A stretch of DNA of 64,000 bases from a virus (lineage: Duplodnaviria > Heunggongvirae > Uroviricota > Caudoviricetes), in the IMG/VR virus record IMGVR_UViG_3300003324_000363, positions 17,571-81,570 of that record; one strand, 5' to 3'. This document shows, in pieces, positions 12,068 to 60,662 of this stretch. The notes under the pieces are model-generated. The model ran no database searches, was not told where the DNA came from, and saw only the letters and a program-made list of their open reading frames with translations. The position numbers were made by a program, and so were the translations under genes. How positions within the stretch are numbered: position 1 is the stretch's first letter; every line of letters starts with the position of its first letter.

Positions 12068-12217
12068 TTATTTGTTAGCAACTCCTAAATGTCCTTTCAC
12101 TACAGGAAATGGTTCTAGCTCTACAAGCTTTCTGCCTTCAACATATCTTACTTTAGCCACAAATATGTCGCCTTCTTCAATATCCTCTGCATTGTCGCCA
12201 AATACTCGAATTGTCAT
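12068..12217 (-). CDS. Small hypothetical protein, 49 aa
   Basis: Read from the sequence. Overlaps the 12214..12552 stop. Confidence 0.3.
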   Translation of the reverse strand: MTIRVFGDNAEDIEEGDIFVAKVRYVEGRKLVELEPFPVVKGHLGVANK

Positions 12218-25203: not shown

Positions 25204-25403
25204 GCCCTTCCCCTCGATGAAAAGAATGACGGATTGTATTGGAAAGAAAACCAAATATGGCATACTGGATTTCTACACATTACATTCCCTGCCTTATTGC
25301 CATCTTTAAAATAATGCCGAATTCTTGGAGCAGAATTACATACTTCACAAAGTTCTCCTTCTACATCTTCTATACGTTCCAAGTTGGCTGGATAAATTGT
25401 CAT
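25200..25403 (-). CDS. Zinc-finger protein, 67 aa
   Basis: CEVC...CRNPVCH. Confidence 0.35.
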   Translation of the reverse strand: MTIYPANLERIEDVEGELCEVCNSAPRIRHYFKDGNKAGNVMCRNPVCHIWFSFQYNPSFFSSRGRA

Positions 25404-28844: not shown

Positions 28845-29092
28845 CTTGAAATTCCACCAGTGTCTCTATTCAACATTTCCATAAATTTTGTCTTGGTGTT
28901 TTTTAGTAATTCTTCAAGCTGCATTGCTTCCTCGTTGTTGACATAATCTATATCTAGCACATTGCAAAATTTACGCATTATGAAATCTATATCTTCAGCT
29001 TTCATGTTAGTCTTGAGCAATTCATTCATGGCAGTTAGTGCTCCGAATCCATACCCAATCATAAATCCACGTTCTAAGGTGTTTTCAGTCAT
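28841..29092 (-). CDS. Hypothetical protein, 83 aa
   Basis: ORF. Confidence 0.4.
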   Translation of the reverse strand: MTENTLERGFMIGYGFGALTAMNELLKTNMKAEDIDFIMRKFCNVLDIDYVNNEEAMQLEELLKNTKTKFMEMLNRDTGGISR

Positions 29093-33152: not shown

Positions 33153-33659
33153 TCAGCTTTCAAAAGGCATCCTCACTCTTGTTTTAGTAACAATGTGTTT
33201 GTCAACATCGTTGTAGGCATATAATTCTCCATTGTATGTGCATTTATAGTTGTAGCCTTTTGGTAATCCTGTAACATCATGGTAGAATTCACGTTGTTCA
33301 CGTTTAATGTAAACATTTTCTAGCTTGCCATCCAAGTTTTTTACCCTATCCCTAGTCTTGCCCATAAACCAAAATGCAAGAATTGAACGTCTAACAATAT
33401 ACCCACCTGCAAAGAATTCACAAACATCATTGCATCTTTCTACCTGTTCGGCAGGAACATGAGCTTCAGTTGATTGTGTACTTTTACATTCTATTGACAT
33501 CAATACTCTTACTGTATTATTTACAGCAACCAAATCTGGGAAATCCGTACCACTGCTACCAAGTCTTTTACAAGCATAGCCTTTTGTTTCATTGAATCGT
33601 TTTCTTAATTTGTATTCCCACGCATAGCCACGTTGCCTTCTGATATGCCCAACTCCCAT
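33153..33659 (-). CDS. hjc: Holliday-junction resolvase Hjc-like PD-(D/E)xK nuclease
   Basis: GYAWEYKLRKRF...RLGSSGTDFPDLVAVNN...IECKST matches the Hjc pattern (G.A.E..L...G..SG..PDLV, then E.K). Confidence 0.6.
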   Translation of the reverse strand: MGVGHIRRQRGYAWEYKLRKRFNETKGYACKRLGSSGTDFPDLVAVNNTVRVLMSIECKSTQSTEAHVPAEQVERCNDVCEFFAGGYIVRRSILAFWFMGKTRDRVKNLDGKLENVYIKREQREFYHDVTGLPKGYNYKCTYNGELYAYNDVDKHIVTKTRVRMPFES

Positions 33660-33665
33660 TATTTA

Positions 33666-33884
33666 TTACACTCTTACCAACTTTAGTAGCTTGACTGCAC
33701 GTTGTCTGCATCTTTTGTTTCTACCACGTGTTCGTAAGCTGAAATGGCAACATGGACAGTTTCTACCATCCCATGCCAAGAATATTTGGCAGACAGTGCA
33801 TCTTTTGTAGCCATCGGCATAATATCCAGTATGATAGCCTAGCTTTTTTGCTTTGTATCTAACACACAGCCCATTGCATGTCAT
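33666..33884 (-). CDS. Zinc-finger protein, 72 aa
   Basis: CNGLC...CTVC...CPCCH. Confidence 0.45.
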   Translation of the reverse strand: MTCNGLCVRYKAKKLGYHTGYYADGYKRCTVCQIFLAWDGRNCPCCHFSLRTRGRNKRCRQRAVKLLKLVRV

Positions 33885-35317
33885 GCCGTATCTCTCCTTT
33901 TGCTTAGAAATGGTGCTAGACGGTTCTTTGCAATTTGTATATAGTCTTTGTTTAGCTCTATTCCTACAAAATCTCTACCTAGCTTTGATGCAACTAAGCC
34001 AGCTGTACCTGCCCCAAAGAATGGGTCTAGCACAATTCCGGGCTTTGTATTTGCATTTTCACAATCACAATCTGGATAGTATTCTCCTACCTTTCTTATG
34101 ATTGTCTGTCTGAATTTTGACAAGTCTGAATTATGCAATCCTTTATTTGGATCGTCATCTGTACCACTCTTCATTGTTCCTGTATTCTTACCGGGTCTTG
34201 TGTTAACACGTTTTTCTTCCATGTTTCTTATCCATGGCTTGTTACATATTGTGCAAATTTTTATTGGACAGGTTGCCAGAATTGGTGTTACACATAATGC
34301 TTCTGGGAATACTGCCGTATGTTCCATGTGAAATGATTGTGTTGTTATATCCCACACGCATCTTTTGATCCGTCCAAACAGCACCGGTGCCCATGGCTTT
34401 CCAGAGTATGTTGGGTTTCCATACAATGCTGCTTTGTTTCCTCCAAACTTTGGCATTTTCTTTGCGTATGTTCCGTCAATACGCATTCTGTGTGGGTTGT
34501 TTTGTCTGTGTGGCTCTTTACTGTTTGCACCAGTGTTTGCCAATATTGATTTAATGATATTCCTTTTAGCATCTGATGGATTTTGTGCATTTGCTGATTT
34601 GTAATCTTTTGTTGCCTGTCCTTTGTAAGCTTTTTTTATTTCTTCTAATGTTATGGAACTGTATGGCTCATACTGTGTTTCAAAATAATAATCATCGTCC
34701 TTTACAAACCATAAGATGTATTCCCAATCACGTGTAAAGCCACGTTTATCACTCTGAGGCATTGAATTTGGCTTCTTCCAAATTATCTCACGTTTCAGCT
34801 TCCAACCACTAGCTTTCATTCTGAACCCAAGTGCTGCTGGGATTTGTTGCAAATCACCATCTATCATTTTATCACCCATGTTCACCCAGAAACTGCCTGA
34901 CTTTTTCAGCACTCTTCTGATTTCATCAAATATTTGCATCAAATGGTCAAGATACAAACATACTGTTGGTTCTTGCCCTAATTCGCCATACCAACCACCA
35001 CAGTCTAAGCAAGTGCTATATGAAATTTCAGTATCTGGAACTGGTTCTTGTTCACTATATTTCCCACTCTTTTGTGCATCACCACGACCAGAATGCAATT
35101 TTGTTATTTTCTTTGCTTGTGCAATGTGTGGACAATCTTCAAATTCATCCCACCATTGCAAATCTGTATGATAACTACGCATCCTGTAATAAGGCGGACT
35201 TGTTATGCACATGTCTATGGATTCAGATGGCAACTGCTTCAGGATAGCTAAAGAATGTCCTTGATAGATATGATTTCTAATTAAATCTTGATTGCTCTGT
35301 TGTATTTCTTTTTGCAT
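33881..35317 (-). CDS. DNA amino-methyltransferase (beta-class, N4-cytosine or N6-adenine) with a large Cys-containing insertion
   Basis: Motif IV CITSPPYY is N-terminal and motif I LDPFFGAGTAGLVASKLGRDFVGIELNKDY is C-terminal. That is the beta order. SPPY is most typical of N4C MTases. Confidence 0.75.
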   Translation of the reverse strand: MQKEIQQSNQDLIRNHIYQGHSLAILKQLPSESIDMCITSPPYYRMRSYHTDLQWWDEFEDCPHIAQAKKITKLHSGRGDAQKSGKYSEQEPVPDTEISYSTCLDCGGWYGELGQEPTVCLYLDHLMQIFDEIRRVLKKSGSFWVNMGDKMIDGDLQQIPAALGFRMKASGWKLKREIIWKKPNSMPQSDKRGFTRDWEYILWFVKDDDYYFETQYEPYSSITLEEIKKAYKGQATKDYKSANAQNPSDAKRNIIKSILANTGANSKEPHRQNNPHRMRIDGTYAKKMPKFGGNKAALYGNPTYSGKPWAPVLFGRIKRCVWDITTQSFHMEHTAVFPEALCVTPILATCPIKICTICNKPWIRNMEEKRVNTRPGKNTGTMKSGTDDDPNKGLHNSDLSKFRQTIIRKVGEYYPDCDCENANTKPGIVLDPFFGAGTAGLVASKLGRDFVGIELNKDYIQIAKNRLAPFLSKRRDTA

Positions 35318-35709
35318 TGAAATTCAATCTCCTCAATCACACCTTCATCGTCAGAAGCAGTCTCTTGTTTTGCTGATTTGTTAACGAGCCATTCTGTTGG
35401 TAGTCTTCCTGTCATAAGTCCATATTTTTCCCATAGTTGTGAATCACGAAAATCATCTTGTGCCTTAGCTTGTGTTGTTGTATGCCCTACATTGCCATCA
35501 ACTTCTAGCACTAATGTGCTATCAGCTTTCACTGCCAGCACATCAGCAATATATTCAATTTTTTGTACCGTTGGAAAAACATCAGGTACTTCAATTGCCG
35601 GCAGTTTGAATTCTAAAGATACAGACCAGCCTTTTTGCTCTAGAATATTTTTCAGTCGTAGTTTTCCAGTTAAGTGTTGGACACTTTCGCCACCATTGCC
35701 TCCTGCCAT
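35281..35709 (-). CDS. DUF559/Vsr-like PD-(D/E)xK endonuclease-domain protein
   Basis: IADVLAVKADSTLVLEVDGNVGHTT...DDFRD matches the DUF559 core (DF...LVIEVDG..H...D..R). Confidence 0.45.
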   Translation of the reverse strand: MAGGNGGESVQHLTGKLRLKNILEQKGWSVSLEFKLPAIEVPDVFPTVQKIEYIADVLAVKADSTLVLEVDGNVGHTTTQAKAQDDFRDSQLWEKYGLMTGRLPTEWLVNKSAKQETASDDEGVIEEIEFQCKKKYNRAIKI

Positions 35710-35761
35710 CCCACCGTCTTTCAGGAGAAAGCCAAGCTATAAATGTTACTATAGATTTTTA

Positions 35762-36025
35762 CTATACAGTTTTTGTATTAGCATCACTATATGAAACTAT
35801 AAAGCCATCACGTATTACAAGTTTGATCTTGTCTGTCTTTCTTGATAGCAAAAACAATTGTATGAAAGGTGTCAACTTGTTATCGAGAATAGCTTCATTT
35901 GTGGTTGTTGATAGATTGCTTGCAGCCACTGGCTTTAGCAAATCTTGCTTTTCAATAATTTCTTTAAGTTCGGCAATCTCTTCTAACAAGTCTTGACGAC
36001 TTCTCACATCATACGTTTCTGCCAT
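35762..36025 (-). CDS. Hypothetical protein. The track start is GTG, so I adjusted to the ATG (MAETYDV...).
   Basis: ORF. A 23-nt AT motif lies upstream. Confidence 0.35.
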   Translation of the reverse strand: MAETYDVRSRQDLLEEIAELKEIIEKQDLLKPVAASNLSTTTNEAILDNKLTPFIQLFLLSRKTDKIKLVIRDGFIVSYSDANTKTV

Positions 36026-36213
36026 AGATAGACCAATCCAGCTGGCAACTAATATACCCACTGTTACCCTAAAATTTTATATAAAATATCTTATATAAAA
36101 AATTATATATAGGATATTTGCATTGGTCTTTAGGAATAGTAATGAAGAAGCACATTGCCATTCCTGACATCCCAACCAGAGGTGTGGGATATTACTCCTG
36201 CACCTTTGGGTCT

Positions 36214-37026
36214 TTATCTCACGTTTAGCAGAATTTCATTCTCTCTACGTTTGTTGATACGGATTGCACTGCCCCACTTGCTTTGCAATCGTTTTATGCT
36301 TTCCTGCTCAATTTTAGCTGTTCTGTATTGCACAACTCCACCTTTGTTTGTATAATGTGCAAATTCAGCAAAAATATCATTGTTTCGTAATACTCCACCA
36401 TATTTTTGGATATGCTGTAGTGTATAATCATAGTCTTCCTTTGTCTTAAATTCTTCATCAAAGTAAAGTTCATTTGGCAACACCATTATGAAACTAGCTA
36501 TTATGAAGCTGGCAGTGTTGATTAGCTTTTTTGGATCAAAATAAAACAAATTTGTTGTAGGTGCAACACCTGCTAGCTTTATCATATTTTTCGTGTCTTT
36601 CAAACGAGTTCTCATCAATTCTACTGTAGATGCAAATGTTATGTCACATGTTGATTTTGTCAGTGTTTGTCCTTTTCCTAATGCTTCTGATGGTGCATCA
36701 AGCACTGTTGCAAGCTTTAGCTTTTTCAAGTCATCGTCAAGCATAACACATGGTATGTTTAATTTCCAAGCATCCTTTAATGCTTCATTTCTGCTATGGC
36801 ATAGCCCACTTGCAATCTTTATTTCTACATTTTCCAAATCATGCTTTGTGACTTCTGTTGTATAATCTCGAAGGTCTTGCTCATCAGCTACATACCATGT
36901 TGCACCACCATCTATTTTTTCATACATGTCTGCAACATTTTGAGGTCTTCTGTGGCTGACAATTGCTACAAAAGCATCTACATCTTTTCTATGCGTCATC
37001 TTCCTTTTCCTTTGTTCTGTCCTCAA
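36214..37026 (-). CDS. GT-A-fold glycosyltransferase-like protein, a candidate DNA glycosyltransferase
   Basis: An N-terminal beta-strand FVAIVSHRRPQN and a DxD motif CVMLDDD about 95 aa in. This layout is typical of GT2/GT-A enzymes. It sits next to a 2OG-Fe(II) dioxygenase. Confidence 0.45.
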   Translation of the reverse strand: MRTEQRKRKMTHRKDVDAFVAIVSHRRPQNVADMYEKIDGGATWYVADEQDLRDYTTEVTKHDLENVEIKIASGLCHSRNEALKDAWKLNIPCVMLDDDLKKLKLATVLDAPSEALGKGQTLTKSTCDITFASTVELMRTRLKDTKNMIKLAGVAPTTNLFYFDPKKLINTASFIIASFIMVLPNELYFDEEFKTKEDYDYTLQHIQKYGGVLRNNDIFAEFAHYTNKGGVVQYRTAKIEQESIKRLQSKWGSAIRINKRRENEILLNVR

Positions 37027-37969
37027 CTACTTCTTGGTTTATGGCACTTTCATATGGTATAACTTCACCTGCATCTAATCTACGTTTGACATTTTCCCCA
37101 ACTTTTCCAAACATTTTCATGACTTCTGGATTGTGTATGCCTCCCATTTTTGTAAGCTGCAATCTACGTTGTTCACGTTCTGTCTTTCGTTTTCTTATAC
37201 GTATGATTTCTTCATTGACTGTTTGGCATTTCCACATTTGTTTCAATGTATAGTAAACTATGGTGAATCTATAACCTTCTTTGCTAACTATTTTGAAAGG
37301 TGTGACACCATGCAGTATCTTTTGCCCATCAAAAAATAGCAAGCTGTGGTCAGCTATTTCCAATCCTATGTCATATGATGGTATAGAAAGATGCCCTCCC
37401 TTGCAATCTTTCTTGAATGCTACCATGTTGCTGTAAACATCATCAAAATTGCCAGCATCAAAGTGATACTTTAATGGGTTGTTCTTGTTAATGATTCCAG
37501 AAGTAAATGGTGTGCCTTCTATCACCCAATCTTTCTTTACTTTTTCATTTACAATGTCTTCATGTACTTTGAATATTTCTGGAGCATGAACCTTATACAA
37601 CTCTGTGCAAACCTTGCCAAATTCACATACTTCTGTATGAGTTTTTGGGTCTTCTCTTGCCAAGCTTACTGCACTGCAATAGTCTTTACGAATTGTTTCT
37701 CTAGGCATATAACCAAATATTCTGCTTGTTGTCCTAAGTCCCTGTGTTCTAAAATTGTAGCTGTATTTTATTTTAGCAATGTCTTCAACAAGTTCATGAT
37801 GGCTATCTGGCAAATTCAGATAGATTGCAATAAGTCTATCACCATCATAGATTTTGCATGGATAGTCTATGAATTGATGGTAGTCCTCATCAAGTGCCGT
37901 CCGTTTCTTATATTTAGCTAAATCTATTTCTCTATCTGTTACCCGTACTGTTTCAACCGTGTTGCTCAT
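36989..37969 (-). CDS. 2OG-Fe(II) dioxygenase-superfamily protein, possibly TET/JBP-like nucleic-acid base oxygenase
   Basis: HxD at KYHFDAGNF, a second His in ILHGVTP about 50 aa later, and an Arg in GYRFTIVYY about 10 aa after that. This is the spacing of the double-stranded beta-helix iron site. The DNA-modification context fits. Confidence 0.5.
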   Translation of the reverse strand: MSNTVETVRVTDREIDLAKYKKRTALDEDYHQFIDYPCKIYDGDRLIAIYLNLPDSHHELVEDIAKIKYSYNFRTQGLRTTSRIFGYMPRETIRKDYCSAVSLAREDPKTHTEVCEFGKVCTELYKVHAPEIFKVHEDIVNEKVKKDWVIEGTPFTSGIINKNNPLKYHFDAGNFDDVYSNMVAFKKDCKGGHLSIPSYDIGLEIADHSLLFFDGQKILHGVTPFKIVSKEGYRFTIVYYTLKQMWKCQTVNEEIIRIRKRKTEREQRRLQLTKMGGIHNPEVMKMFGKVGENVKRRLDAGEVIPYESAINQEVVEDRTKEKEDDA

Positions 37970-38591
37970 ATTTGTTCATCAGAAACAATACAGCATCTGT
38001 ATTTGACTCTAGTTTATTTTCTGCCATTATCTTTTCAAACTTTGTAAGCACTTCTTCATATTGCTCTGGCGTAAAATATAGGGTTATCTGTCTAACTGTC
38101 CCATGCAGATATGTATTCAATCTTGATTCTAATGGCGATGGATCTTTTGTAATCAGATTAGGAGAATCGGCATTGCCCATAAGAGCACGCATTGTTTCAA
38201 GTTCTGATTCATTTATACCAAGCAATGATTCCAATCTTGCAGCATCATTTTGCATGATAAGCTCCAACTCAGCAACATCCTTGTCAAGCTGGTGCTCACC
38301 ACGTAGCTTATTCATAGCCTGTCTTATGATTCTACGTTCAATATCATTTTGCACTTCGACTCTAACAACAGGTATGTTAGTTTCACCTTGTGCTTTCATA
38401 ATTAAAAATCTATGCTCACCATCAACAATAACATCATTCTGGTCAATAATTACTGGTTGTAAATAACCAAACTGTCTAATTGATTCTGCCAGTCCAGACA
38501 TCTGCTTGTCATTAAGCTGGTTTGGGTTGTCAGGGTCTAACTTTATGGTATTAACATCAACAATGTCAGTTTTATGGAATTTTATAGCCAT
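37953..38591 (-). CDS. ParB-like nuclease (ParB N-terminal/sulfiredoxin-fold) domain protein
   Basis: LQPVIIDQNDVIVDGEHRF matches the ParB box (L.P..V....ILIDGHHR). Confidence 0.55.
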   Translation of the reverse strand: MAIKFHKTDIVDVNTIKLDPDNPNQLNDKQMSGLAESIRQFGYLQPVIIDQNDVIVDGEHRFLIMKAQGETNIPVVRVEVQNDIERRIIRQAMNKLRGEHQLDKDVAELELIMQNDAARLESLLGINESELETMRALMGNADSPNLITKDPSPLESRLNTYLHGTVRQITLYFTPEQYEEVLTKFEKIMAENKLESNTDAVLFLMNKYEQHG

Positions 38592-38924: not shown

Positions 38925-38981
38925 ATGTTTCCCTACTTTAAAAGTCAGTTAACAAGTAATTAAATATATTTATATAAAATA

Positions 38982-39016
38982 GCTTGTCCGTTATTGCTTC
39001 TAACTAACGGACAAGC
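38982..39016. promoter_or_regulatory. Perfect 12-bp inverted repeat GCTTGTCCGTTA-(11 nt)-TAACGGACAAGC. Candidate operator or terminator between two winged-helix genes.
   Basis: Seen directly. A TATA-like TTTATATAAAATA lies at 38969-38981. Confidence 0.45.
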
Positions 39017-39102
39017 TACACATCACGTCAACAGGTCAGACTGAGAGCCGTGCGTTCCACCGCCAAGAAGCAATAGATAAACTGATTCACTAAAATAAAA
39101 AG

Positions 39103-39771: not shown

Positions 39772-41589
39772 TTAGCTCCAGAAATTGAGTGTAAGTTGAC
39801 CACGTGTTATGGCTCGTATATCCTTTCCCAGCAACTGGAGAATATCGCCAAATGCAGATTCAAATGTCTTCTCATACTCTTTTTTGTCCAAGTCATTAAA
39901 GCTGTTTACTTTAATTGCTACACCATTGTGGGTTTTCCAGTAATATACAACATCACCGGCACTGGCGTTTGCCATCTGCCCTAGCTTTTTGTTTTGGTTC
40001 TCACTTTCATAATCTTCCCAATTTCTTGTAAGCTTGGTTGAATAGAATAGCTGGTTCAAGCTTACATTTCCTGCTCTAAATTCATCGTATGTTGCCTGTA
40101 ACAGTGTTGATGGGTCTAAGCCATTTGCATAGTCACGTGTAAATTGAGCAAATGCTTCATTAATCCATTTTGGTCTATCGTTCTTTTCTGCCTCTATGCC
40201 AGCTACAACAATATCACCATCTTCTTTCACCCCTATGTAGTGTTTTTTGCCTGTAATCATAAATCTTGCATAAGTTTTGTCATGCTCCAATTCCAAGCCT
40301 AGTTTTGCCTTTACATCTTCGATTATCTTACGTGCAGTTTCAGCATCAGAATTAGGGAACATGATAGAATCAGTGTCGCCATATATTACAGTGCAGCCAT
40401 GTGTTTTTGCTATTTCAATAATCTGCATGATATAGTGGCGTTCAAATGCTATTATACTGTCATAACATCTTACATCTGAATATTCATAGTATGGATTGTT
40501 GAATAAACCTGTTTTTGCATTCATTACAATTTTCAAACCATCTGCCATGACTTTATTGCCATTCCTTTTATGCACCATTCTTTCCTCACGCATTTCTGTA
40601 AACTTGGTAGTTACTGCACCTTTCTTCTGTTTGCATGACCATAGCAATGGTTTGTTTGGTACTTTTGAAGATTCTAAATCCCTGCAACATTCACAGCACA
40701 TTGCATCTGGGCTTATGTTATGCTTTATGATTATTGATGGATACAAGCTTGCAACGTCAAGCACTACAACATTTCTATAGTCACCAACAACTGGCTCTAG
40801 CACTATCGGCCCTTGTCGTTTCTTACGTTTTCCATGAGCTGCATCATTTGGCATTTCTGGTCTAAATTCAATAGGTGTTTCTGGCATTTTCATGTCACGC
40901 AGTATCTTTCGCCAGATTGAAGACATGCCAAAGTTACATATGGTTTGAATTGGAAGTCCTGTTTTATCTGCTAAAGCATACATTAATTTCATTAACCCAT
41001 AGTCACGTTTTGGCATCTTTGTTTTCTTGTCTATATCGCCAACCTGTGCCAGCTTGAATGTTAGTCTAGCATCGTTTAGACAGTATTCTTTCTGCTTTTC
41101 AACGGTCATTGATTCGGCAGTTGAACCTGTAATGCCTTCTGTCTTACCTTCACCTAGCAATGCTTTAGCTACACTTTGCAGTTTTTGATCTTTGTATCTC
41201 TTTTTGAAAATATAGTTTCTTACTACACCTTTATCAAATATCATAAACAGGTCAATATGTGTTCTTCCATGTACTGGCTCTGGAAGCATACGTTGTATCT
41301 TTCTAGGATTCACTATTGAACTTAGGTGATATTTTTGACACCTTTGGTGTAGCACATCAAAGTCTGACCCTTCACCAGTTGTATAGTAGCCAATGGTTAA
41401 TGGGTACTTCATTATTTTCTTGTTTATCTTTTCTAATAGTTCCTCTTCATCTGGGAAATCATCTAGATGGTAAACATCTTCATTGCCCATGTCGTCAACA
41501 AAAGCAGCACAATACAACTCCCCTGTTTTCTTCCATTCAAAGTCGAAAGCTGCATAGTTTTCAAAATTGTTAAAGCTAGACATTATCAT
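39772..41589 (-). CDS. polB: Family-B DNA polymerase. Start adjusted to MIMSSF... (the track start is 41715).
   Basis: Exo I FDFEW, Exo II YYTTGEGSDFDVL, Exo III YCLNDARL, motif A LDVASLYPSII, motif B KIVMNAKTG and motif C YGDTDS are all present. Confidence 0.9.
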   Translation of the reverse strand: MIMSSFNNFENYAAFDFEWKKTGELYCAAFVDDMGNEDVYHLDDFPDEEELLEKINKKIMKYPLTIGYYTTGEGSDFDVLHQRCQKYHLSSIVNPRKIQRMLPEPVHGRTHIDLFMIFDKGVVRNYIFKKRYKDQKLQSVAKALLGEGKTEGITGSTAESMTVEKQKEYCLNDARLTFKLAQVGDIDKKTKMPKRDYGLMKLMYALADKTGLPIQTICNFGMSSIWRKILRDMKMPETPIEFRPEMPNDAAHGKRKKRQGPIVLEPVVGDYRNVVVLDVASLYPSIIIKHNISPDAMCCECCRDLESSKVPNKPLLWSCKQKKGAVTTKFTEMREERMVHKRNGNKVMADGLKIVMNAKTGLFNNPYYEYSDVRCYDSIIAFERHYIMQIIEIAKTHGCTVIYGDTDSIMFPNSDAETARKIIEDVKAKLGLELEHDKTYARFMITGKKHYIGVKEDGDIVVAGIEAEKNDRPKWINEAFAQFTRDYANGLDPSTLLQATYDEFRAGNVSLNQLFYSTKLTRNWEDYESENQNKKLGQMANASAGDVVYYWKTHNGVAIKVNSFNDLDKKEYEKTFESAFGDILQLLGKDIRAITRGQLTLNFWS

Positions 41590-42691
41590 GCTCCTCCTGT
41601 TGGGATTTTCTGCCATATGCCAATGGATTTCTGATGCCTGCACAACCACTGTCTTCAAAGCACCATCCCAAGTTCTTGAGCTTGTCACAATTATTTGGAC
41701 TGTAGCCTTTATCAACTATAAAGTTTACCTGATAGTTTGTAACTGATTCCTTGTAATCAGGTGCATTCTTGAACATGTCGGCTATTTCATCAGCCGGCTT
41801 GCCTAGTTTGTTCATGTAGCTAACAAACAATATTCTTGCTGTATGTGGCACATTTTCACCTTTGCTAAATAAGTCCAGCACATGTTGGATGCATGGAGGA
41901 TATTTTTGTGGTACAAAGCTAGCTGTGCTAAACTGTATATTGTATTGCTCACTCAATAATTCAGCAGATTCAATTATTTGAAATGGCATCTTATTCATGG
42001 GCAATTGTAAGGAAGCAATACGGTTTACAAGCAGTTCTTCAATTTCATCTCTTGCAAAACGGATCAGCTCCTTTTCTGATAGTGAAACATAACCACCATG
42101 GACAACCTGATTTACTAGCTTCCAGTCCTTGCTATGGAATTTTACTGACCTTTTCAAGTATTCTGGAACACGTAGCAGGTATGCTAGTTTTGGCTGCCAT
42201 TCTTCACCATGTCTCAGTGCATTTTTCTTTTCAAATTCAATGATGTTTTTACAGTTCTCACAGTCATCAAAAATAGGTCGATGCTCTACTGCCATCTTTA
42301 AATCACGTCTTAGAATTTGTAATACAAACTCATGCATTGCTTTATCTCTAAGTTTAATGTGCTCTGTCAAGCTATCCAGTAAAAACTGCTCTGTTCGTTT
42401 GGCTATTGAAAGTGCAATCTTATGATAGAGTTTTGGATTGTTTGTTAATTTGCAAATTGATAGGATTATAATGTAAAGTTGCGCCTCTGTTTTTACATTT
42501 TCCAAGTTAGTATTGAATTCACTCTTTAGAGCAATATTGATTCGTGACATGGCTTTCTCTACCAGTGTTTCAATATTGGCAGCCTGCATTGTTTCCTCAA
42601 AAAATGAGTTTGGACTAGCAGGTTTTGCATCAGCTAGCCATGGGTATTTGGCTAGATCGTTTCCACCTGCTTCTATTATGCCAGTTTCCAT
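41576..42691 (-). CDS. priL: Archaeo-eukaryotic primase large subunit (PriL) with a C-terminal 4Fe-4S domain
   Basis: The C-terminal block YPPCIQHVL...KGYSPNNCDKL...WCFEDSGCAG parallels the eukaryotic/archaeal PriL FPPCM...KGYSY...C.K...GC iron-sulfur domain. Confidence 0.6.
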   Translation of the reverse strand: METGIIEAGGNDLAKYPWLADAKPASPNSFFEETMQAANIETLVEKAMSRINIALKSEFNTNLENVKTEAQLYIIILSICKLTNNPKLYHKIALSIAKRTEQFLLDSLTEHIKLRDKAMHEFVLQILRRDLKMAVEHRPIFDDCENCKNIIEFEKKNALRHGEEWQPKLAYLLRVPEYLKRSVKFHSKDWKLVNQVVHGGYVSLSEKELIRFARDEIEELLVNRIASLQLPMNKMPFQIIESAELLSEQYNIQFSTASFVPQKYPPCIQHVLDLFSKGENVPHTARILFVSYMNKLGKPADEIADMFKNAPDYKESVTNYQVNFIVDKGYSPNNCDKLKNLGWCFEDSGCAGIRNPLAYGRKSQQEEHDNV

Positions 42692-44766
42692 CCTTCCTCA
42701 CCTTCATAAGTGCCCCAATACATGAAATCGCCATCTTTTTTGTACTTTGCAAGAACTGATCTGGCATCTTCTTCTGTCCACCCATGATTTTCCATCAATC
42801 TTTGTCTTAGTTCTTTAGGAGTTGCAAAATATTCAGTACGTAATGTTCCGTCTTTTAGTGACTTGAATGCTGATCGTAAAATGTCTTCAGTAGATTGCTT
42901 TATCTTTACTTCTCTGGTTGGCATATCGCCATTGGCTATTGCTGGGTCTAGCTTTTGAGTTAGTGGGTCAAATGCTGTTATACGCATTGATGTGTCTAGC
43001 AGTTTTACAGCAACATCAACATCGACCATTTCAACTTCTGGCTTTTGTAAGTATCTAGCATGAGCTAATGCAAATCTAACTGCACTGTTGATGTATCTCG
43101 GAGTAATCAAGCCTTTCAGGTCTTCAACTTGCCTTTTCTTTTGATAGTATTCAACAATGCGTTGATAGATTTCAGGTGTTAGTTTTGGAATTGGCACATG
43201 TTTTGCTACATACATGATGTACTTTTTCATGGTTTTGAAGCCAAATCTTTCTTGTGTGTCATTCATGTATTCTTGCCAGTATTTGTCACTAAAGTTTTCA
43301 AGTACTCTTCGAGCCACCAATGCGTCAGTTTCTGGATTTGGTCTATCTAGTACAACAAAGATAGAGTCAAATCTTGTTATGAAACTAGGTGGCATGAATT
43401 TCAAATTCTTTTGTATGTCTTTTTGCTCATCCCAATATGGGAATACACTGTTGCAGGCAAATAGCCATGCACAATCTGATGGCAGTGTACCTTTCTCTGT
43501 TCCTCTTGCATATGAACAGGTTTTGTTTGACCCTATTTCATGCAGTCTTTGAAATATTTCTGGTGTGCTTTTATCAAACTCATCGCCAGCACTTATGCCT
43601 CTGTGACAGCTTGGGAAAAAACCGGGTGTTATCATAAATTGATTTGTATCTTTGTCTTTACTTGCTATAACTGTCAAACCTGATGGCGTACTTGTTGCAA
43701 ATGATGTGTAGGCTGAATTTGGTGCATATGATGCTGTTCTTAACAGCAAAGCTGTCTTGCCTGTTCCCGGTGTTCCTGCCAAAAGCAGGTTTATGCTAGT
43801 TGCATCAGAATGTGATGGGCTTTTGTTTAATGATTCTGAAAGCAAGTTTATGCTTGCACATTGTAAGATTAATGCTTCTTTTACATCTTCCATGCCAATT
43901 ACTTCTGGAGCAAATGATTTGACAGACTTCTCCCAAAAGTCAGGTTCTTTCGACATGCCGTTGCTGAATTTAGCTACATCGTCTGGTGTTAATTCATACT
44001 CTTCATTTTCATTTCCTGTATCTTCGATGTTGTTAGCCCATAGAACGTATGATGGTTGCTGCTTTTCTGTTGTTGGCATTTCAATTGTAAGATAGCCAAA
44101 TATGTCAATGCTTCTACCTGCATTTATTATTCTGTCACACAGGTCTTTGCCTTTTACCCATACTTTCAAATTCATTGGAGCTGTTGATGCTTTTACTGGC
44201 ATCAAAATTATTGTTCTGGTGTCTTCAACTTCCTGTTCAATTATTGCTGGGAACTTGTCTTTGCAGTTTATGCATTCTTTTGCAGGTCTAGCTTGCTCAA
44301 CATGTGATTGTGAAACTGTTATGCCGTCAAACCCACAGCCCATGCAGTGGTATGTCATTTTTCTTATCCATGGTGTGTTGCTTGTTATGGCACCTACTCT
44401 GCCATTTATTGTAACTAGCTTGCCGTTGTAAAACCCACCAATGTCTTTTAGCCCAATTCTACTGCCTGATATGTTGTGGAATCTTACTATTGGCTCGATA
44501 GCTGAATTGCCATAAATTTCGATTAGAATTAGTCTTACTGCATCAGTGAATGCTTTGTGTGCCAATGGAAAATTGTTTATGATCAAATTCAGTATTTTCT
44601 TGCCATTTTCACTTTCCATTAGATGTTTTCCATCAACAAACACAGTTCTGCTTTCTTGTGTCAGTCCTGATATTATATCTGAGTATATTTTGAAGGTATC
44701 TAGCTCATAACTATCAAGCCATTGCCTGATAGTTTCTACTGTCTTTCCTATTGTTGCTGTTGACAT
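42676..44766 (-). CDS. mcm: MCM replicative helicase
   Basis: N-terminal C4 zinc finger CMGCGFD...CINCKD. P-loop LLAGTPGTGKT. MCM Walker-B DEFDKS. MCM arginine-finger motif TRFDSIFVVLD. Confidence 0.85.
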   Translation of the reverse strand: MSTATIGKTVETIRQWLDSYELDTFKIYSDIISGLTQESRTVFVDGKHLMESENGKKILNLIINNFPLAHKAFTDAVRLILIEIYGNSAIEPIVRFHNISGSRIGLKDIGGFYNGKLVTINGRVGAITSNTPWIRKMTYHCMGCGFDGITVSQSHVEQARPAKECINCKDKFPAIIEQEVEDTRTIILMPVKASTAPMNLKVWVKGKDLCDRIINAGRSIDIFGYLTIEMPTTEKQQPSYVLWANNIEDTGNENEEYELTPDDVAKFSNGMSKEPDFWEKSVKSFAPEVIGMEDVKEALILQCASINLLSESLNKSPSHSDATSINLLLAGTPGTGKTALLLRTASYAPNSAYTSFATSTPSGLTVIASKDKDTNQFMITPGFFPSCHRGISAGDEFDKSTPEIFQRLHEIGSNKTCSYARGTEKGTLPSDCAWLFACNSVFPYWDEQKDIQKNLKFMPPSFITRFDSIFVVLDRPNPETDALVARRVLENFSDKYWQEYMNDTQERFGFKTMKKYIMYVAKHVPIPKLTPEIYQRIVEYYQKKRQVEDLKGLITPRYINSAVRFALAHARYLQKPEVEMVDVDVAVKLLDTSMRITAFDPLTQKLDPAIANGDMPTREVKIKQSTEDILRSAFKSLKDGTLRTEYFATPKELRQRLMENHGWTEEDARSVLAKYKKDGDFMYWGTYEGEEGWKLA

Positions 44767-45146
44767 TATTCATCCCTGTTTATGTCGGCTATCTGCTCGA
44801 CTGTAAATGATACATCAAAGGCATTCTCCATAAAACCTATGAATAATCCAAACTCCCATTCTTTGTTGCATTTGAAACAGAGTGCTTGGTATTTTGAATA
44901 ATTAAACTCAGTGTTAATTTCATGCGTTATGTCTGGAAGTAAATTTTGTTTTGGGTCACAGGTTGTGAATCTGCTGCCACATTCCGGGCAGTATAGAATA
45001 TCATGCACTTTTAGGGTGAATAGGTGATATGATGGTCTTTCCTCGCCTGTGTACCTAGAAATTGTTGTATCTAGTTTAGTTTTTACTTTTGATTTTATTG
45101 TGCTCAAAGCTTCGTATTGTTTTTGATTTTTTGCCATTTCTATCAC
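44766..45146 (-). CDS. Zinc-ribbon protein, 126 aa
   Basis: CPECGSRF...CFKCNKEW. Confidence 0.45.
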   Translation of the reverse strand: MIEMAKNQKQYEALSTIKSKVKTKLDTTISRYTGEERPSYHLFTLKVHDILYCPECGSRFTTCDPKQNLLPDITHEINTEFNYSKYQALCFKCNKEWEFGLFIGFMENAFDVSFTVEQIADINRDE

Positions 45147-45508
45147 TCTTCATTATGCTCTAGCCTTTCTTCCCAATTTGCAATCTCACGTGCGTGGCTT
45201 CTTATACATACTTGAAGCTCTGCCATTTCTTTTTTTGAAACTAACCCTGTTCGGCACATCCACAAGTATGGTCTTGGTGGCTCATTTATTCTCGGCCATA
45301 CCTTGCCATTCTCTGCTCCATTCATTTGAGCATCCCAATACATCATTGCCACACAAATCTCATTTGAAACATTCCTTCCCTCATTCTTCCATCTATTTTT
45401 GATTTCTAAAATTGTTTTTGCGTAGCTTGGTTTCAAGCTGAATGATATTATGTTGCTTGGTAATCTTTTTGCTTCTTCAATCGTTTCTGTTTCAGACATC
45501 CCAATCAT
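45143..45508 (-). CDS. Hypothetical protein, 121 aa
   Basis: ORF. Confidence 0.45.
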   Translation of the reverse strand: MIGMSETETIEEAKRLPSNIISFSLKPSYAKTILEIKNRWKNEGRNVSNEICVAMMYWDAQMNGAENGKVWPRINEPPRPYLWMCRTGLVSKKEMAELQVCIRSHAREIANWEERLEHNEE

Positions 45509-46001
45509 TACACAAACTATAAACCGGTATTATAAAAATCTACTTTAAGATTTTATATAAAATATCTTATATAGAATTTTTTATATAAAATTCTTTTTCA
45601 TTTTACATTACATTACATTACATTACAAGTACATAGTATAAGTACAGCTAGTAAGTAGTAGAAGTAGTAGTAGAAATGATGGTAGTGTTGTACTTGGAAA
45701 CTGAAATTAAATGTTTATAATTATTAATTAAATGTTAAATAAATAAATCAGAATTGAACGTAAAACAGGTGTTTTAAATTTATTAAACTTTTAATTGTAG
45801 TTTTCAAATTTTCTTTCCAACCCATTTTTTCAAAAGCTCAACAGGAAAACTTAGGCAATTAACGTATTAGAAATCACCGGTAGCAGTGACATGATAGGCA
45901 ATCGTTTTCTGCCACCGGTGATTGATGAGTCACGAAGGGTTGGGTCTATACAGAGGATGTCAGCGTGATAGTAGAAAATACGTTGTCATATAAAAATATA
46001 T
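45509..46001. other. ~490-bp AT-rich non-coding region. Candidate replication origin and/or structured non-coding RNA.
   Basis: No ORF of 60 aa or more on either strand. It contains (ACATT)4 at 45605-45624, an AGT-rich tract at about 45654-45675, and a 10-bp perfect inverted repeat AATCACCGGT / ACCGGTGATT (45872-45881 and 45914-45923) nested inside CCAACCC / GGGTTGG pairing (~45823-45829 and ~45934-45940). It lies next to the replication genes. Confidence 0.45.
45605..45624. repeat. Pentanucleotide microsatellite (ACATT)x4
   Basis: Seen directly. Confidence 0.8.
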
Positions 46002-46265
46002 TTACTTAAGATTGCCTCTACAATATTGGATTACGGTTATAGTATCTAGAACACAGCCATAACAGTAATCGCCATTCAAAGAAATTGGAGCATGGTTGAA
46101 TTTAGGATCGCCAGCCATGCCTACAAATTGAAATACAAAATCAAAATCACGTTTGTCTATTCCTTCTCTATTTAGCATATCTTCCAAGCTTTCTGAAAAA
46201 ATAACAGGATTGCCGTCCTCTTCTGTTCTGTAAATATGATGGACGGCACGTATGTCGTCACTCAC
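46002..46265 (-). CDS. Hypothetical protein, 87 aa
   Basis: ORF. Confidence 0.45.
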   Translation of the reverse strand: MSDDIRAVHHIYRTEEDGNPVIFSESLEDMLNREGIDKRDFDFVFQFVGMAGDPKFNHAPISLNGDYCYGCVLDTITVIQYCRGNLK

Positions 46266-46747
46266 TGCCCAAATTCTACCTTCTTTCTCTTCACCAGCTT
46301 GTAAACTACAACTACAGTATTCTCTACTGCATTGAAGTAGTACTCACGGAAGTGCTCGCCGGTACTTGTTCCTGCTGGCTTCCATCCTTGTTCTAGAAGT
46401 TCCTTAACATTTGGCGATGAATAGCTTGCTCCACCATTCAAGATAGAAATGGTTTCAACAATTGTCTTTTCATCTTCTAGCACATAGAATGCTTTATTGT
46501 AGCCACTTTTGAATCCACCTTGTTCCCCAGAAGCTTGCTGTGTTTTTTGTTCTCCTTTATGTTGATGTACAGTGCCATCAGGATTTACAACTCGGTATCC
46601 TTTTGGTTGGCTTACATCATTGATAAAGCCCATCAGCTCGTTTGGGAATCCTCTTTCTTGGCAGATACGGCATTCTTTTGTTGTCTTTGGTTTTGTGAGA
46701 TTGGATTGTCCAGCCGTCCCACTCTGCTGGTTCAATGTCTGTGACAT
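46262..46747 (-). CDS. Hypothetical protein, 161 aa, with an N-terminal CRICQERG zinc knuckle
   Basis: ORF. Confidence 0.5.
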   Translation of the reverse strand: MSQTLNQQSGTAGQSNLTKPKTTKECRICQERGFPNELMGFINDVSQPKGYRVVNPDGTVHQHKGEQKTQQASGEQGGFKSGYNKAFYVLEDEKTIVETISILNGGASYSSPNVKELLEQGWKPAGTSTGEHFREYYFNAVENTVVVVYKLVKRKKVEFGQ

Positions 46748-47890: not shown

Positions 47891-47925
47891 CGTAAAAGCC
47901 GGTATATGTTTTTGATACTAAGGAA

Positions 47926-48351
47926 CTATCCTTTGTCTATTTTCTTGTTTATAATATCAAATTGCTTCACATCATCATCTGCATGTGCCTTTACAGTACT
48001 TTCAAGTTTGGTAATTTCTTCACCAACATTTTCCAGCTTCAGCAACACGGTTTCAAAAAATGGTGTTCTACTGGCTAAGGAATTCAATATTTCTTTAATA
48101 TCTAAAGCTGATCTGTCGATGTTTTCTTTGTAGGTTTTCAATACAGCAACATCAGCAGACATCTGTTGTACTTTATCAACAATAGGTTCTGTTGTTTCAA
48201 GATGTTCATTGAGTTTAGTTTCTAATCTATCAATACATTGGAGCTTTATGCTAACTCTTATGACAAAAGCAATCATGATGCCGCCAATAGTTATTATTGT
48301 GCCAAGAATGGCAAGAAGCAAGTTTGGGTCTATTTCAAAGGATGCTGACAT
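47926..48351 (-). CDS. Membrane-anchored coiled-coil protein, 141 aa
   Basis: N-terminal transmembrane helix LLAILGTIITIGGIMIAFVI, then a heptad-rich stretch. Confidence 0.45.
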   Translation of the reverse strand: MSASFEIDPNLLLAILGTIITIGGIMIAFVIRVSIKLQCIDRLETKLNEHLETTEPIVDKVQQMSADVAVLKTYKENIDRSALDIKEILNSLASRTPFFETVLLKLENVGEEITKLESTVKAHADDDVKQFDIINKKIDKG

Positions 48352-56440: not shown

Positions 56441-56486
56441 ATAATCAGACAGCTAATCGTAATTCAATCCATAAAAGTAAGAACTA

Positions 56487-56882
56487 TCACACATCATCAC
56501 TTGGTGGCTCTACCTGCAATGAGATATTTGCCATATACTCTTCCATGAATGCTCCAGTTTGAACAATGTCAACTATGTATTCTTTCCCACCAGTCATGTA
56601 GAATTTACCCGGTATGAATCCATCACGATAGTGTTGAAATCCAAATTCTTGGAATATGCTATAGAAAGCATGGGCAATTACTTTGTACCGTGCTTCTTGT
56701 ATTTTCTCCCAGTATATGTTATCACGTAAGTAGCCTGTTTTTACAGGTGCTAAATCTTTAGCTCTATCTTGTGCCTCATCTGCTAAGAATTGAGCAAGAA
56801 CATCATTTCTTTGCTCTGCTGTATTTGCAATGTTGTCTAGTGTTCTTATTAATGAGTCAAAGCCACGTGTTGTTATTGGCAT
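56487..56882 (-). CDS. HK97 gp10-like head-tail connector protein
   Basis: APVKTGYLRDNI resembles the gp10-family PVDTGNLR(R/N)S motif. 131 aa, in the neck-gene position. Confidence 0.5.
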   Translation of the reverse strand: MPITTRGFDSLIRTLDNIANTAEQRNDVLAQFLADEAQDRAKDLAPVKTGYLRDNIYWEKIQEARYKVIAHAFYSIFQEFGFQHYRDGFIPGKFYMTGGKEYIVDIVQTGAFMEEYMANISLQVEPPSDDV

Positions 56883-56883
56883 T

Positions 56884-57411
56884 CTAGTTAGCTTGTTGTG
56901 TTTCAGCTTCTAATCGAACTATCTGCACCCACCATCCAGTAGGCTGTCCTTGGTCATCAAACTCTTTTCTAGGTGGTGAGTCAGCCATGCCAATTGGAAT
57001 AATCTTACGTAATGTGCTCATTATGCCATTTGGTGCAGCACTGATATACTTTTTAATTCCATTTCTATCTGTTGATATAAACAGAGCATTCCATATGCCA
57101 TCAGCCATCTTTTCACACACTTTTGGATTTTTAGAATAACAGCTCATTGTTATGCCCATTCTTGCACGTAATGAAATCAATCCTGAAGATGTTTCTATGC
57201 CACGAATAATATTAGTTTGAACAACAATGCATGGGTCTTGGACTCCTTTTCTATTGCCAACTTCACTCCATTCAAACACAGTTGGTATTACCGGGTCATT
57301 GTTATTTCTAACATTTGCACGCCAATTGTAGCCTGTTTGCCCTGTGCTATCATAGCTAAGCAATGCTTTAATATCCCTGAATGTGCCAGCTCTTGGGTTA
57401 GTGATAGGCAT
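56884..57411 (-). CDS. Head-tail connector or tail-completion protein, 175 aa
   Basis: Assigned by position only. Confidence 0.4.
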   Translation of the reverse strand: MPITNPRAGTFRDIKALLSYDSTGQTGYNWRANVRNNNDPVIPTVFEWSEVGNRKGVQDPCIVVQTNIIRGIETSSGLISLRARMGITMSCYSKNPKVCEKMADGIWNALFISTDRNGIKKYISAAPNGIMSTLRKIIPIGMADSPPRKEFDDQGQPTGWWVQIVRLEAETQQAN

Positions 57412-60619: not shown

Positions 60620-60662
60620 GTTAGCTCACAAACACTGCCTAAGAAAATAAAATATGAACTAT

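Follow-up and report, generated by a model that had tools for sequence, protein, structure and literature searches.

Iteron-plus-AT-rich origins that lie beside replication genes are known from lambda ori, P1 oriR and theta-type plasmids. Transcription-activated origins include the T7 primary origin, T4 ori(uvsY) and ori(34), and ColE1 RNA II, and lambda oop RNA is a small phage-encoded RNA that likewise sits beside replication genes. We know of no mapped origin for an MCM-encoding archaeal tailed virus, and to our knowledge it is not known how MCM-carrying archaeal viruses choose where replication starts and load the helicase. Few non-coding RNAs described from archaeal viruses have come to our attention.

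Here we describe a gap in 64 kb of DNA from an uncultivated tailed virus of archaeal type (the window, meaning the whole stretch analysed). The gap is a control region that separates the tail genes of this virus from its replication genes. The sequence indicates that this gap probably holds a small non-coding RNA gene beside an AT-rich stretch of repeats, and the latter is a plausible candidate for a replication origin. Read on the minus strand, the region would thus consist of two adjacent, separable elements, an RNA unit and a candidate origin; we put forward this combined reading tentatively, at a little under an even chance.

A gap between tail genes and replication genes

As an earlier note on this DNA had stated, the largest ORF-free gap in the window (ORFs of at least 40 aa, all six frames) is 45509-46001. 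It measures 493 bp, which is 2.5-3 times the length of other operon boundaries, and it is AT-rich, again as noted (27.2% GC vs 38.2% for the window). No 120-bp stretch of the window is lower in GC than 45527-45646 (15%), which lies inside it, as do 4 of the 18 TRF rows for the window, in 0.8% of the sequence. The earlier note had placed the gap downstream of the MCM, PriL and PolB genes. This is wrong: the minus strand carries every gene on either side, which puts the gap 5' (upstream) of the MCM/PriL/PolB operon. Its features and neighbours are as follows.

46262-46747, minus strand: ORF161, which precedes ORF87; conserved last gene of the tail-side module
46002-46265, minus strand: ORF87, the last ORF ahead of the gap; its stop codon TAA (46004-46002) lies within the promoter motif
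45988-46007, minus strand: orphan copy of the promoter motif, AAGTAAATATATTTTTATAT, matching in type the virus consensus (AT)AGTTAAATATATTTATATA
45817-45966, minus strand: GC-rich island (44% GC), candidate non-coding transcript with a predicted start at ~45964 +/- 3
45872-45923, minus strand: hairpin with a 15-bp stem and a 22-nt loop; CUCAUCA stands ahead of it
45815-45600: AT-rich repeat stretch (19-26% GC) with inverted repeats and short tandem repeats
45680-45815: AT-rich core (19% GC), candidate unwinding element
45649-45677: tandem 12-nt units AGTAGTAGAAGT / AGTAGTAGAAAT with the core TAGTAGA, candidate protein-binding repeats
45603-45627: (TTACA)5, which is (TGTAA)n on the gene strand; TRF period 5, 5 copies, 100% match
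45526-45595, minus strand: cluster of TATA-like palindromes recurring every 14 nt (TTTTATATAAAAT), putative replication-operon promoters
39772-45508, minus strand: replication operon served by the gap (ORF121, Zn-ribbon ORF126, MCM, PriL, PolB)
45143-45508, minus strand: ORF121, first gene of the replication operon
44766-45146, minus strand: Zn-ribbon ORF126
42676-44766, minus strand: MCM
41576-42691, minus strand: PriL
39772-41715, minus strand: PolB

ORF121 and ORF126 gave no informative family match, and the predicted structure of ORF121 is poor (pLDDT 60). PriS was not detected in the window, where PriL stands alone.

The collections hold only four lineages, the window included, so that covariation rests on single pairwise comparisons, and transcription and origin function are inferred. 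The nearest relative, L002 (MCM 51% identical), has a gap between the same flanking genes; L003 and L008 are more distant. Directly ahead of the equivalent element, a homologue of ORF161 is found in L002 (50% identity) and in L008 (E = 6e-9). Searches of IMG/VR with single ORF121, ORF161 and MCM proteins gave no further relatives. An ORF161 alignment found nothing in JGI metagenomes or IMG/VR, a five-sequence MCM alignment found nothing in GTDB genomes or IMG/VR, and protein searches with the ORF161 and ORF121 alignments returned only the window itself and L002. Two RadA matches at 36-37% identity (a Nitrosopelagicus MAG and an 'uncultured bacterium') were uninformative on the host.

An orphan promoter motif and a candidate structured RNA

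The window contains 11 exact minus-strand sites of the motif AAATATATTT. Ten of them stand 13-54 nt ahead of where an ORF starts, a specificity for promoter positions that exceeds chance. The gap copy is the sole site with no ORF behind it, the next ORF being 485 nt away. A small protein gene in the gap was also rejected, as no ORF of at least 20 aa starts behind this promoter. Three of the virus's consensus promoters have their ATG 24-26 nt past the end of the TATATA box; this spacing suggests leaderless mRNAs, and from it we infer a transcript start at ~45964 +/- 3 for the orphan copy. The earlier note had seen one promoter-like motif at both edges of the gap. Two copies of TTTTATATAAAAT(A/T) are indeed present (45551-45564 and 45579-45592), but both are at the low-coordinate edge, and the motif at the high edge is AAATATATTT.

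In the reading that we favour, the orphan promoter (46007-45988) would start minus-strand transcription at ~45964, giving a GC-rich RNA of roughly 100-150 nt that would fold around the hairpin at 45923-45872 and end in U-rich sequence. The hairpin would work at the level of RNA, defining or stabilising the 3' end, and not as a DNA binding site. On the minus strand its stem has 14 Watson-Crick pairs and one G.U pair. With a predicted energy of -25.6 kcal/mol it ranks first among 31,976 52-nt windows on both strands, i.e., it is the most stable in the 64 kb, and fold z-scores for the island range from -2.9 to -3.3. Candidate 3' ends are the U-runs at ~45850-45847 and ~45834-45831, or GGGUUGG at 45823-45817. 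No run of at least five U follows the window hairpin, only UUU, and a terminator scan found nothing. Within the window, matches to possible antisense targets of the island RNA are near chance only. Features of a stand-alone small RNA are present: the candidate has a promoter motif of its own at the right distance, no ORF, and a structure kept in one close and two distant lineages.

The 10-bp inverted repeat of the earlier note is present, with arms AATCACCGGT (45872-45881) and ACCGGTGATT (45914-45923), although 32 nt rather than 28 nt separate them. If one mismatch is allowed, the arms lengthen to 15 nt (45872-45886 / 45909-45923) and 22 nt remain between them. The enclosing pairing of CCAACCC (45817-45823) with GGGTTGG (45937-45943) also exists, but a 7-bp long-range pairing is at chance level (about one expected per 190 nt) and L002 is without a counterpart. 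Similarly, the 8-mer TAGGCAAT does occur twice (45852-45859 and 45895-45902), but the duplication is not significant because about two repeated 8-mers are expected in 493 bp.

In L002, the promoter motif GTAAATATATTT is found at 5625, straight after a stop codon and with no ORF behind it, and the spacing from the motif to a non-coding structured segment is the same as in the window. This structure begins at the predicted transcript start (fold z-score -4.0) and includes a hairpin (5720-5763) with UCAUCA ahead of it and UUUUUAUUUU after it. Between the two stems, 7 of 15 pairs are changed on both sides; none is broken, and one base is bulged. The 12-nt promoter motif is the only significant sequence similarity of the window and L002 here. 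Conservation of the inverted repeats in relatives, which the earlier note had named as a check, is thus seen for the pairing and not for the arm sequence, a pattern that points to an RNA or structural element rather than a binding site. Fold energies show no preference for the sense strand in either the window or L002, and assignment of the strand by energy failed. A second GC-rich gap in L002 (4788-5156), considered as a similar RNA, was rejected as an uncalled Cys-rich ORF of ~86 aa.

In L003 and L008 a rod-like fold of ~90 nt has a TATA box 24 nt ahead of its base, and the two lineages have a 19-nt apical hairpin in common; the L008 fold strongly prefers the sense strand (-41.9 vs -26.6 kcal/mol). 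No significant similarity was detected between the window type and the L003/L008 type, and a four-way alignment of the GC-rich elements was unreliable. The two types may therefore be analogous rather than homologous, and we do not claim homology. A search with the hairpin as a DNA pattern gave one unrelated palindrome, in L001, and a search with the L003/L008 19-mer gave no matches. A joint pattern of the promoter motif and the block at the predicted start had 14 metagenome matches and was discarded, all of them being chance matches with no related proteins nearby.

The earlier note had also proposed that the GC-rich nested inverted repeat is bound as DNA by an initiator, with the adjoining AT-rich DNA unwinding. 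An inverted repeat, AT-rich DNA and replication genes do adjoin one another, 3 of the 9 window copies of ACCGGT are in the gap (one of them at the ORF121 promoter, 45523-45528), and the GGTGATT of both arms is similar to the core GTGATT in the repeats of L003 and L008. However, GTGATT enrichment in the window is weak (P about 0.05), L002 keeps the pairing without the arm sequence, and a spacer of 22-32 nt is long for a cruciform or a dimer site. The core of the archaeal origin recognition element ORB is the motif TTCC...GAA (PMC1904270); the gap holds no TTCC-N3-5-GAA, and the 18 matches in the window are unclustered. No Orc1/Cdc6-type domain was found among the 50 ORFs scanned against Pfam, which come from the 64-kb window of a 99.7-kb contig and take in only part of its small ORFs; the sole AAA+ match was the MCM. 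The proposal is unsupported as it stands, and we consider a dyad origin of this kind improbable.

We also asked whether the gap could be a familiar element. The candidates were an overlooked gene for a small protein, a fragment of a tRNA or of attP, a MITE, and an RNA of some curated family. A GC-rich island within an AT-rich gap, with 7-bp inverted ends, might suggest as much, but there is no conserved ORF and ARAGORN finds no tRNA, and a tRNA or attP fragment was rejected on that result; nor do the scanned ORFs include an integrase domain. There is no second copy in the window, where the longest match elsewhere is 15 nt (promoter module aside), and a MITE was rejected on this single copy and the lack of a target-site duplication. 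Neither the window nor the gaps of its relatives had a match to Rfam 15 at the gathering threshold. Weaker matches (E = 0.3-9), at chance level in all four lineages, are to unrelated miRNA and snoRNA models that differ between lineages. A C/D-box RNA and a hammerhead ribozyme were rejected as well: the plus strand has UGAUGA, but a box D, the core arrangement and an Rfam match are all missing. Taken as a class, these identities are hardly credible.

AT-rich repeats and the candidate origin

Beyond the island, the minus-strand reading continues into the AT-rich stretch 45815-45600, which would be the likeliest place for the viral MCM to meet an opened duplex. In the core of this stretch, 45694-45717 and 45784-45807 form an imperfect inverted repeat of 24 nt (83% complementary), and AATTAAATGTT occurs as a direct repeat at 45705-45715 and 45726-45736. 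The (ACATT)4 reported by the earlier note at 45605-45624 is present and belongs to the five TRF copies at 45603-45627; its AGT-like tract is found at 45649-45673. The 12-nt units occupy 45654-45665 and 45666-45677. Three of the six window copies of TAGTAGA fall in the gap, and the same core occurs in the gaps upstream of MCM in L003 and L008. Together with CTACTAC (three copies) and ACATTAC (four copies), TAGTAGA forms short, tandem, microsatellite-like tracts, which slippage alone can generate. The TAGTAGA and TGTAA(T) repeats would, in our favoured reading, be binding sites for a virus-encoded DNA-binding protein.

The relatives have private repeats in the corresponding position. In L002, GTAATAC occurs five times in the gap and nowhere else (P = 1.6e-11), and TAGAGAGTGATT in L003 and TGAAACGTGATTACAC in L008 lie directly upstream of the replication genes. 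In L002 and L008 the corresponding gap is enriched in TGTAAT as well (5 copies, P = 8e-4, and 2 copies, P = 5e-3, respectively). Iteron-like clustering is clear in L002, L003 and L008, whereas the window copies form tandem, microsatellite-like tracts.

At the low-coordinate end, the promoter cluster (45595-45526) would then drive the replication operon. A proximal TATA, TTTTTATAATA, is located at 45538-45528, ~20 nt ahead of the ORF121 ATG, and TTATATAAAAT is found 19 times vs 4.75 expected. A 24-nt stretch of the cluster (45550-45573) is an exact repeat of 36074-36097, ahead of another operon.

These observations could instead describe a plain operon boundary with no separate RNA gene and no origin, which we regard as rather unlikely. 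The late/tail operon would then have the hairpin and island as its structured 3' end, acting as terminator or stabiliser. The T-rich box would either terminate transcription or serve the replication operon as an upstream promoter with a long leader, and the AT-rich repeats would be operators or slippage products, in keeping with their microsatellite-like form. Strong hairpins that are followed by promoters at another operon boundary fit such an element: a strong hairpin and U-rich sequence at 39020-38970 of the window precede a promoter at 38971, and in L002 a strong hairpin at 12142-12178, again with U-rich sequence after it, precedes a promoter at 12186. The box of the orphan promoter includes T5 straight after the stop codon and so could be the terminator of the preceding operon, and the 24-nt module is shared with the start of another operon. 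Yet the box fits the promoter motif in both the window and L002, and the L002 box has only T3. The structures in L002, L003 and L008 begin where promoter spacing predicts the transcript start. In addition, the gap is considerably longer than the other boundaries, and the high enrichment of private repeats in each lineage, for example the L002 repeat counted above, would not be expected in a mere spacer. Finally, archaeal termination generally relies on oligo-T, and the RNA polymerase needs no hairpin.

The earlier note had suggested a search for a skew inflection at the gap. Within the window, the A-T, purine and keto skews have their change point at 45492. Counted at four-fold degenerate sites, A-T skew is not the same on the two sides of this position (P = 0.005); the change point coincides with a boundary between gene modules and gene classes. 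The G-C skew has its change point elsewhere, at 41669, and no skew changes sign; nor does gene orientation switch across the gap, which speaks against an origin. AT richness (in both the core and the 15% GC segment at 45527-45646, which together supply the unwinding-element feature), clustered repeats, the private repeats of the relatives and the skew change at 45492 make the AT-rich stretch a plausible candidate origin. Of the two proposals in the earlier note, the structured RNA is better supported than the origin, provided that the minus strand was meant: the TATA-like element that it named is a minus-strand promoter motif with no ORF behind it and a counterpart in L002, from which transcription would be expected.

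It is conceivable that the RNA unit and the origin are one device, in which the orphan transcript opens or primes the adjoining AT-rich DNA. The promoter without a gene reads into a 19% GC stretch ~150 nt downstream, the window, L002 and L003 share the order of promoter, structured element and AT-rich repeats, and the window has PriL with no PriS detected. In L008, however, two genes lie between the structured element and the repeat gap, which argues for separable modules. Moreover, the RNA is not G-rich, so a stable R-loop is not favoured, and the U-rich stretches and hairpin ahead of the AT-rich core suggest termination. We give such a transcription-coupled origin only a slim chance. The same low expectation applies to a more specific version, in which a structured viral RNA licenses or primes an origin that recruits the viral MCM without Orc1/Cdc6, with the RNA and the repeats again acting as one device.

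Comparison with known systems

For the two-element reading, the gap offers a small, concrete origin candidate, in which lineage-specific repeats and an AT-rich stretch stand ahead of MCM-PriL-PolB in a comparison of four lineages, as well as a candidate virus-encoded structured RNA outside the Rfam families. If an RNA-coupled origin were true, it would be the first defined, and the first RNA-coupled, origin for an MCM-encoding archaeal tailed virus. Should the region have neither function, it would still record a promoter motif and an operon-boundary architecture in a very sparsely sampled virus group.

Hairpin-plus-U intrinsic terminators resemble the hairpin in having a stable GC-rich stem, and L002 has UUUUUAUUUU after its stem; similar hairpins also precede a promoter at another operon boundary in both genomes. 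The window stem differs in its 22-nt loop and in being followed by UUU only. Like lambda oop RNA, the candidate would be a short RNA with its own promoter and a hairpin end at the edge of a replication module, but it would be sense to its neighbours, with no overlapping target gene, and it belongs to no Rfam family.

With transcription-activated origins the gap shares, at the level of sequence, a gene-less promoter that reads toward an AT-rich segment upstream of replication genes. It departs from them in that the predicted RNA is not G-rich, a hairpin and U-rich sequence come before the AT-rich core, and genes separate the two parts in L008. The gap resembles archaeal chromosomal origins (ORB/mini-ORB, orc1/cdc6) in its AT-rich core with an imperfect inverted repeat on its flanks (45694-45717 / 45784-45807) and in its place beside a replicative helicase gene. 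It differs in being without the TTCC...GAA core (PMC1904270) and in adjoining a viral MCM operon, and none of the window ORFs scanned was recognised as Orc1/Cdc6.

Iteron origins differ from the gap in two respects: the window repeats are tandem tracts of 5-12 nt rather than spaced iterons of 17-22 bp, and ORF121 and ORF126, encoded next to the repeats, are proteins without an informative family match. The gap resembles them in that clustered short repeats, nearly confined to one non-coding region, adjoin AT-rich DNA beside replication genes, and in that each related genome has repeats of its own, which would fit co-evolution with a binding protein.

Position and composition of the gap

The window comes from a 99.7-kb metagenomic contig of a tailed virus whose replication genes are of archaeal type. 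Nearly every long ORF in the window is on the minus strand, and transcription was taken to run from high to low coordinates. Although the earlier note had placed the ORF-free gap downstream of the MCM, PriL and PolB genes, the gene order and minus-strand transcription indicate that it lies upstream of the replication operon.

Gene layout around the gap, in the direction of transcription
Down to 46002, minus: tail-side block with a weak tail-tube match, ending with ORF161 and ORF87
46262-46747, minus: ORF161
46002-46265, minus: ORF87, adjoining the gap
45509-46001: gap, between ORF87 and the replication operon
After the gap, minus: replication operon, in the order ORF121, Zn-ribbon ORF126, MCM, PriL, PolB
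Beyond PolB: ParB_N, TET/JBP dioxygenase, TAGT-like glycosyltransferase, DNA methylase, Hjc, RadA

The glycosyltransferase gene (36214-37026, minus) is grouped with those for the dioxygenase (36989-37969) and the ParB_N protein (37953-38591), and an N6/N4 DNA methylase gene (33881-35317, minus) lies slightly beyond; taken together, 33881-38591 (minus) resembles a cassette for DNA hypermodification, here in a tailed virus of archaeal type. A very stable hairpin (36161-36212, plus, -23.5 kcal/mol), whose fold is the stronger one in the antisense direction of the genes, occupies the gap past the glycosyltransferase gene. No tRNA genes were detected in the window by ARAGORN; three tandem tRNA genes are present at L002:1665-1918, on a related virus contig.

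All of the elements that the earlier note had listed in the gap are present at or near the positions assigned to them, with three adjustments. The spacer of the 10-bp inverted repeat is 32 nt, and the repeat can be extended to 15 nt with one mismatch. Two copies of TTTTATATAAAAT, described as marking the gap edges, do exist, but both are at the low-coordinate edge, and a different motif is found at the other edge. Several features stand above chance. With ORFs of at least 40 aa counted in all six frames, no ORF-free stretch in the window is larger than the gap, and it contains the lowest-GC 120 bp (15% GC) and 4 of the 18 TRF rows. The hairpin at 45872-45923 ranks first in fold stability among 31,976 52-nt windows taken from the two strands; it lies in the GC-rich island (45817-45966), which is 44% GC versus 27% for the gap. 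By contrast, the outer 7-bp pairing and the 8-mer duplicate are at chance level for this much sequence, and conservation was seen for neither.

Judging from the sequence of four lineages, the reading we prefer, tentatively, is that the gap may be a composite control region containing a minus-strand RNA unit plus a candidate origin or operator.

An orphan promoter and a structured element

The palindromic core AAATATATTT, inside the consensus (AT)AGTTAAATATATTTATATA, has 11 exact copies on the minus strand. For 10 of them, an ORF starts 13-54 nt further on, and in three of these 10 promoters an ATG follows the TATATA box by 24-26 nt, which suggests leaderless mRNAs. The eleventh copy, AAGTAAATATATTTTTATAT (46007-45988, minus), overlaps the ORF87 stop codon; 485 nt separate it from the next ORF start, and no ORF of at least 20 aa starts behind the motif. 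Given the spacing at the other promoters, a transcript would start at ~45964 and from there enter the GC-rich island. The first part of the composite region would be this short, structured, promoter-driven non-coding RNA on the minus strand. Complementary matches of the island RNA elsewhere in the window total near chance; its segment UUGCCUAAGUUU (45847-45858), which lies immediately 3' of the hairpin, shows complementarity to mRNA-sense sites at 18026, 25811-25822 and 26666.

A different motif, GATAGTTC, has 6 copies in the window versus 1.4 expected, and is also present in L003, another related contig. The three copies checked of the six (47923, 56481 and 60656) lie ~33-41 nt before ORF starts of the tail-side block, and the motif may be a late-promoter element.

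Copies of GATAGTTC
47923-47930, 56481-56488, 56916-56923, 58296-58303, 60656-60663 and 2786-2793, all minus

Four lineages in all, including that of the window, were found across the collections searched, and additional protein, alignment and DNA-pattern searches of these collections yielded no further relatives. L002 is the nearest (MCM 51% identical to that of the window); the MCMs of L003-L007, which are mutually identical in this region, and of L008/L009 are each 39% identical. The orthologous gap of L002 is 467 bp, flanked by ORF161 and ORF121 homologues. There, GTAAATATATTT, a motif that precedes genes elsewhere in L002, directly follows the stop codon with no ORF behind it, and the start of a fold (z-score -4.0) coincides exactly with the predicted transcript start. 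UCAUCA stands ahead of the hairpin in both viruses, and UUUUUAUUUU follows it in L002.

When the two stems were aligned from their bases, 7 pairs were changed on both sides and 1 on one side, and no pair was broken except for a one-base bulge. Thus, of the inverted-repeat conservation that the earlier note had proposed to examine, the pairing is kept and the arm sequence is not. Because pairing is conserved rather than sequence, the comparison argues for a role that would be RNA-level or structural, and not for a conserved protein-binding dyad. For the same reason we regard the origin model proposed earlier, in which the GC-rich dyad serves as an initiator site, as improbable.

In L003 and L008, the base of a ~90-nt rod-like fold comes 24 nt after a TATA box. 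A 19-nt apical hairpin that includes U.G pairs is common to both, and the L008 fold has a large sense-strand energy preference. No significant sequence similarity was found between this type and that of the window, so we treat the two as putative positional analogues and do not claim homology. Neither Rfam nor ARAGORN gave a match for the element in any of the four lineages. A stretch of L002 considered as a GC-rich non-coding gap was rejected, since it holds an uncalled Cys-rich ORF (L002:4861-5121, ~86 aa) that starts 33 nt behind a consensus promoter.

The order of strong hairpin, U-rich sequence and next promoter recurs at another operon boundary, both in the window and in L002.

Stems at the other operon boundary
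38980-38993 / 39005-39018, minus, window: perfect 14-bp stem, then promoter at 38971
12142-12178, L002: stem, then promoter at 12186

Given this recurrence, the gap hairpin could be a mere boundary or 3'-end element, and the gap an ordinary boundary between operons that serves no special purpose. We consider this somewhat less likely than the composite reading. Unlike the other boundary, the gap has a promoter-motif copy that is an orphan, its length is 2.5-3 times as great, and ~270 bp of AT-rich, repeat-rich DNA separates its hairpin from the operon promoters. The other boundary itself holds a second conserved non-coding element (38925-39102, minus), after PolB and two small ORFs, with ~90 nt of GC-rich sequence, a hairpin at the end and the next promoter immediately after. 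Its syntenic counterpart, L002:12061-12227, differs in stem sequence; it has the tail UUUCUUUAU and, upstream, a near-consensus promoter.

The AT-rich repeat half

The second part of the composite region would be the adjacent AT-rich, repeat-bearing segment, the best candidate for an origin or an operator of the replication operon.

Features of the AT-rich half
Beyond the island: AT-rich stretch, 19% GC, with a 24-nt imperfect inverted repeat
AT-rich half of the gap: tandem AGTAGTAGAAGT units
AT-rich half of the gap: (TGTAA)5
Before ORF121: TATA-palindrome cluster with a 14-nt period

Within the palindrome cluster, the 24-nt ATTTTATATAAAATATCTTATATA (45550-45573) recurs exactly and in the same orientation at 36074-36097, before another operon, and is probably a promoter/operator module common to the two. 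At the equivalent site, directly upstream of the replication genes, a strongly enriched repeat particular to the lineage occurs in every relative: GTAATAC in L002 (5 in the gap, 0 elsewhere in 13.4 kb; P = 1.6e-11), TAGAGAGTGATT in both orientations in L003, and TGAAACGTGATTACAC in L008. There is weak sharing of cores between lineages, namely of TGTAAT (window, L002, L008) and TAGTAGA (window, L003, L008). The latter, repeated in the window gap, is also found inside TTAGTAGAAGAATCTTTAAGTTCA, ~23 nt conserved directly upstream of the MCM start (L003:9933-9955, L008:2072-2095). In L008, ParB and one further gene lie between the structured element and the repeat gap; therefore, the two halves are separable modules.

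Comparison with known origins

The skew analysis proposed in the earlier note was run on 64 of the 99.7 kb. In the detrended cumulative curves, A-T, purine and keto skews have a common turning point at 45492 and G-C skew turns at 41669; no skew changes sign within the window. At four-fold degenerate sites, A-T skew differs between the two sides (0.237 versus 0.112, permutation P = 0.005) and G-C skew does not. The pattern is compatible with replication-related asymmetry, as weak evidence, because the turn coincides with a gene-class boundary and only 64 of 99.7 kb are covered. We give little credence to a transcription-coupled origin. The window also encodes RadA/Rad51 (29085-30185), Hjc resolvase (33153-33659), a calcineurin-like phosphoesterase (6703-7320) and a NAPRTase-family protein (23803-25263), and its recombination toolkit could back recombination-dependent replication.

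The ORB core motif, TTCC...GAA (PMC1904270), is absent from the gap. Since no Orc1/Cdc6 domain was seen among the 50 ORFs scanned either, we conclude that the region is not a canonical origin of the archaeal chromosomal type. To our knowledge, next to nothing has been charted of either the origins or the non-coding RNAs in archaeal tailed viruses that encode an MCM, and it is this that lends the gap a moderate interest.
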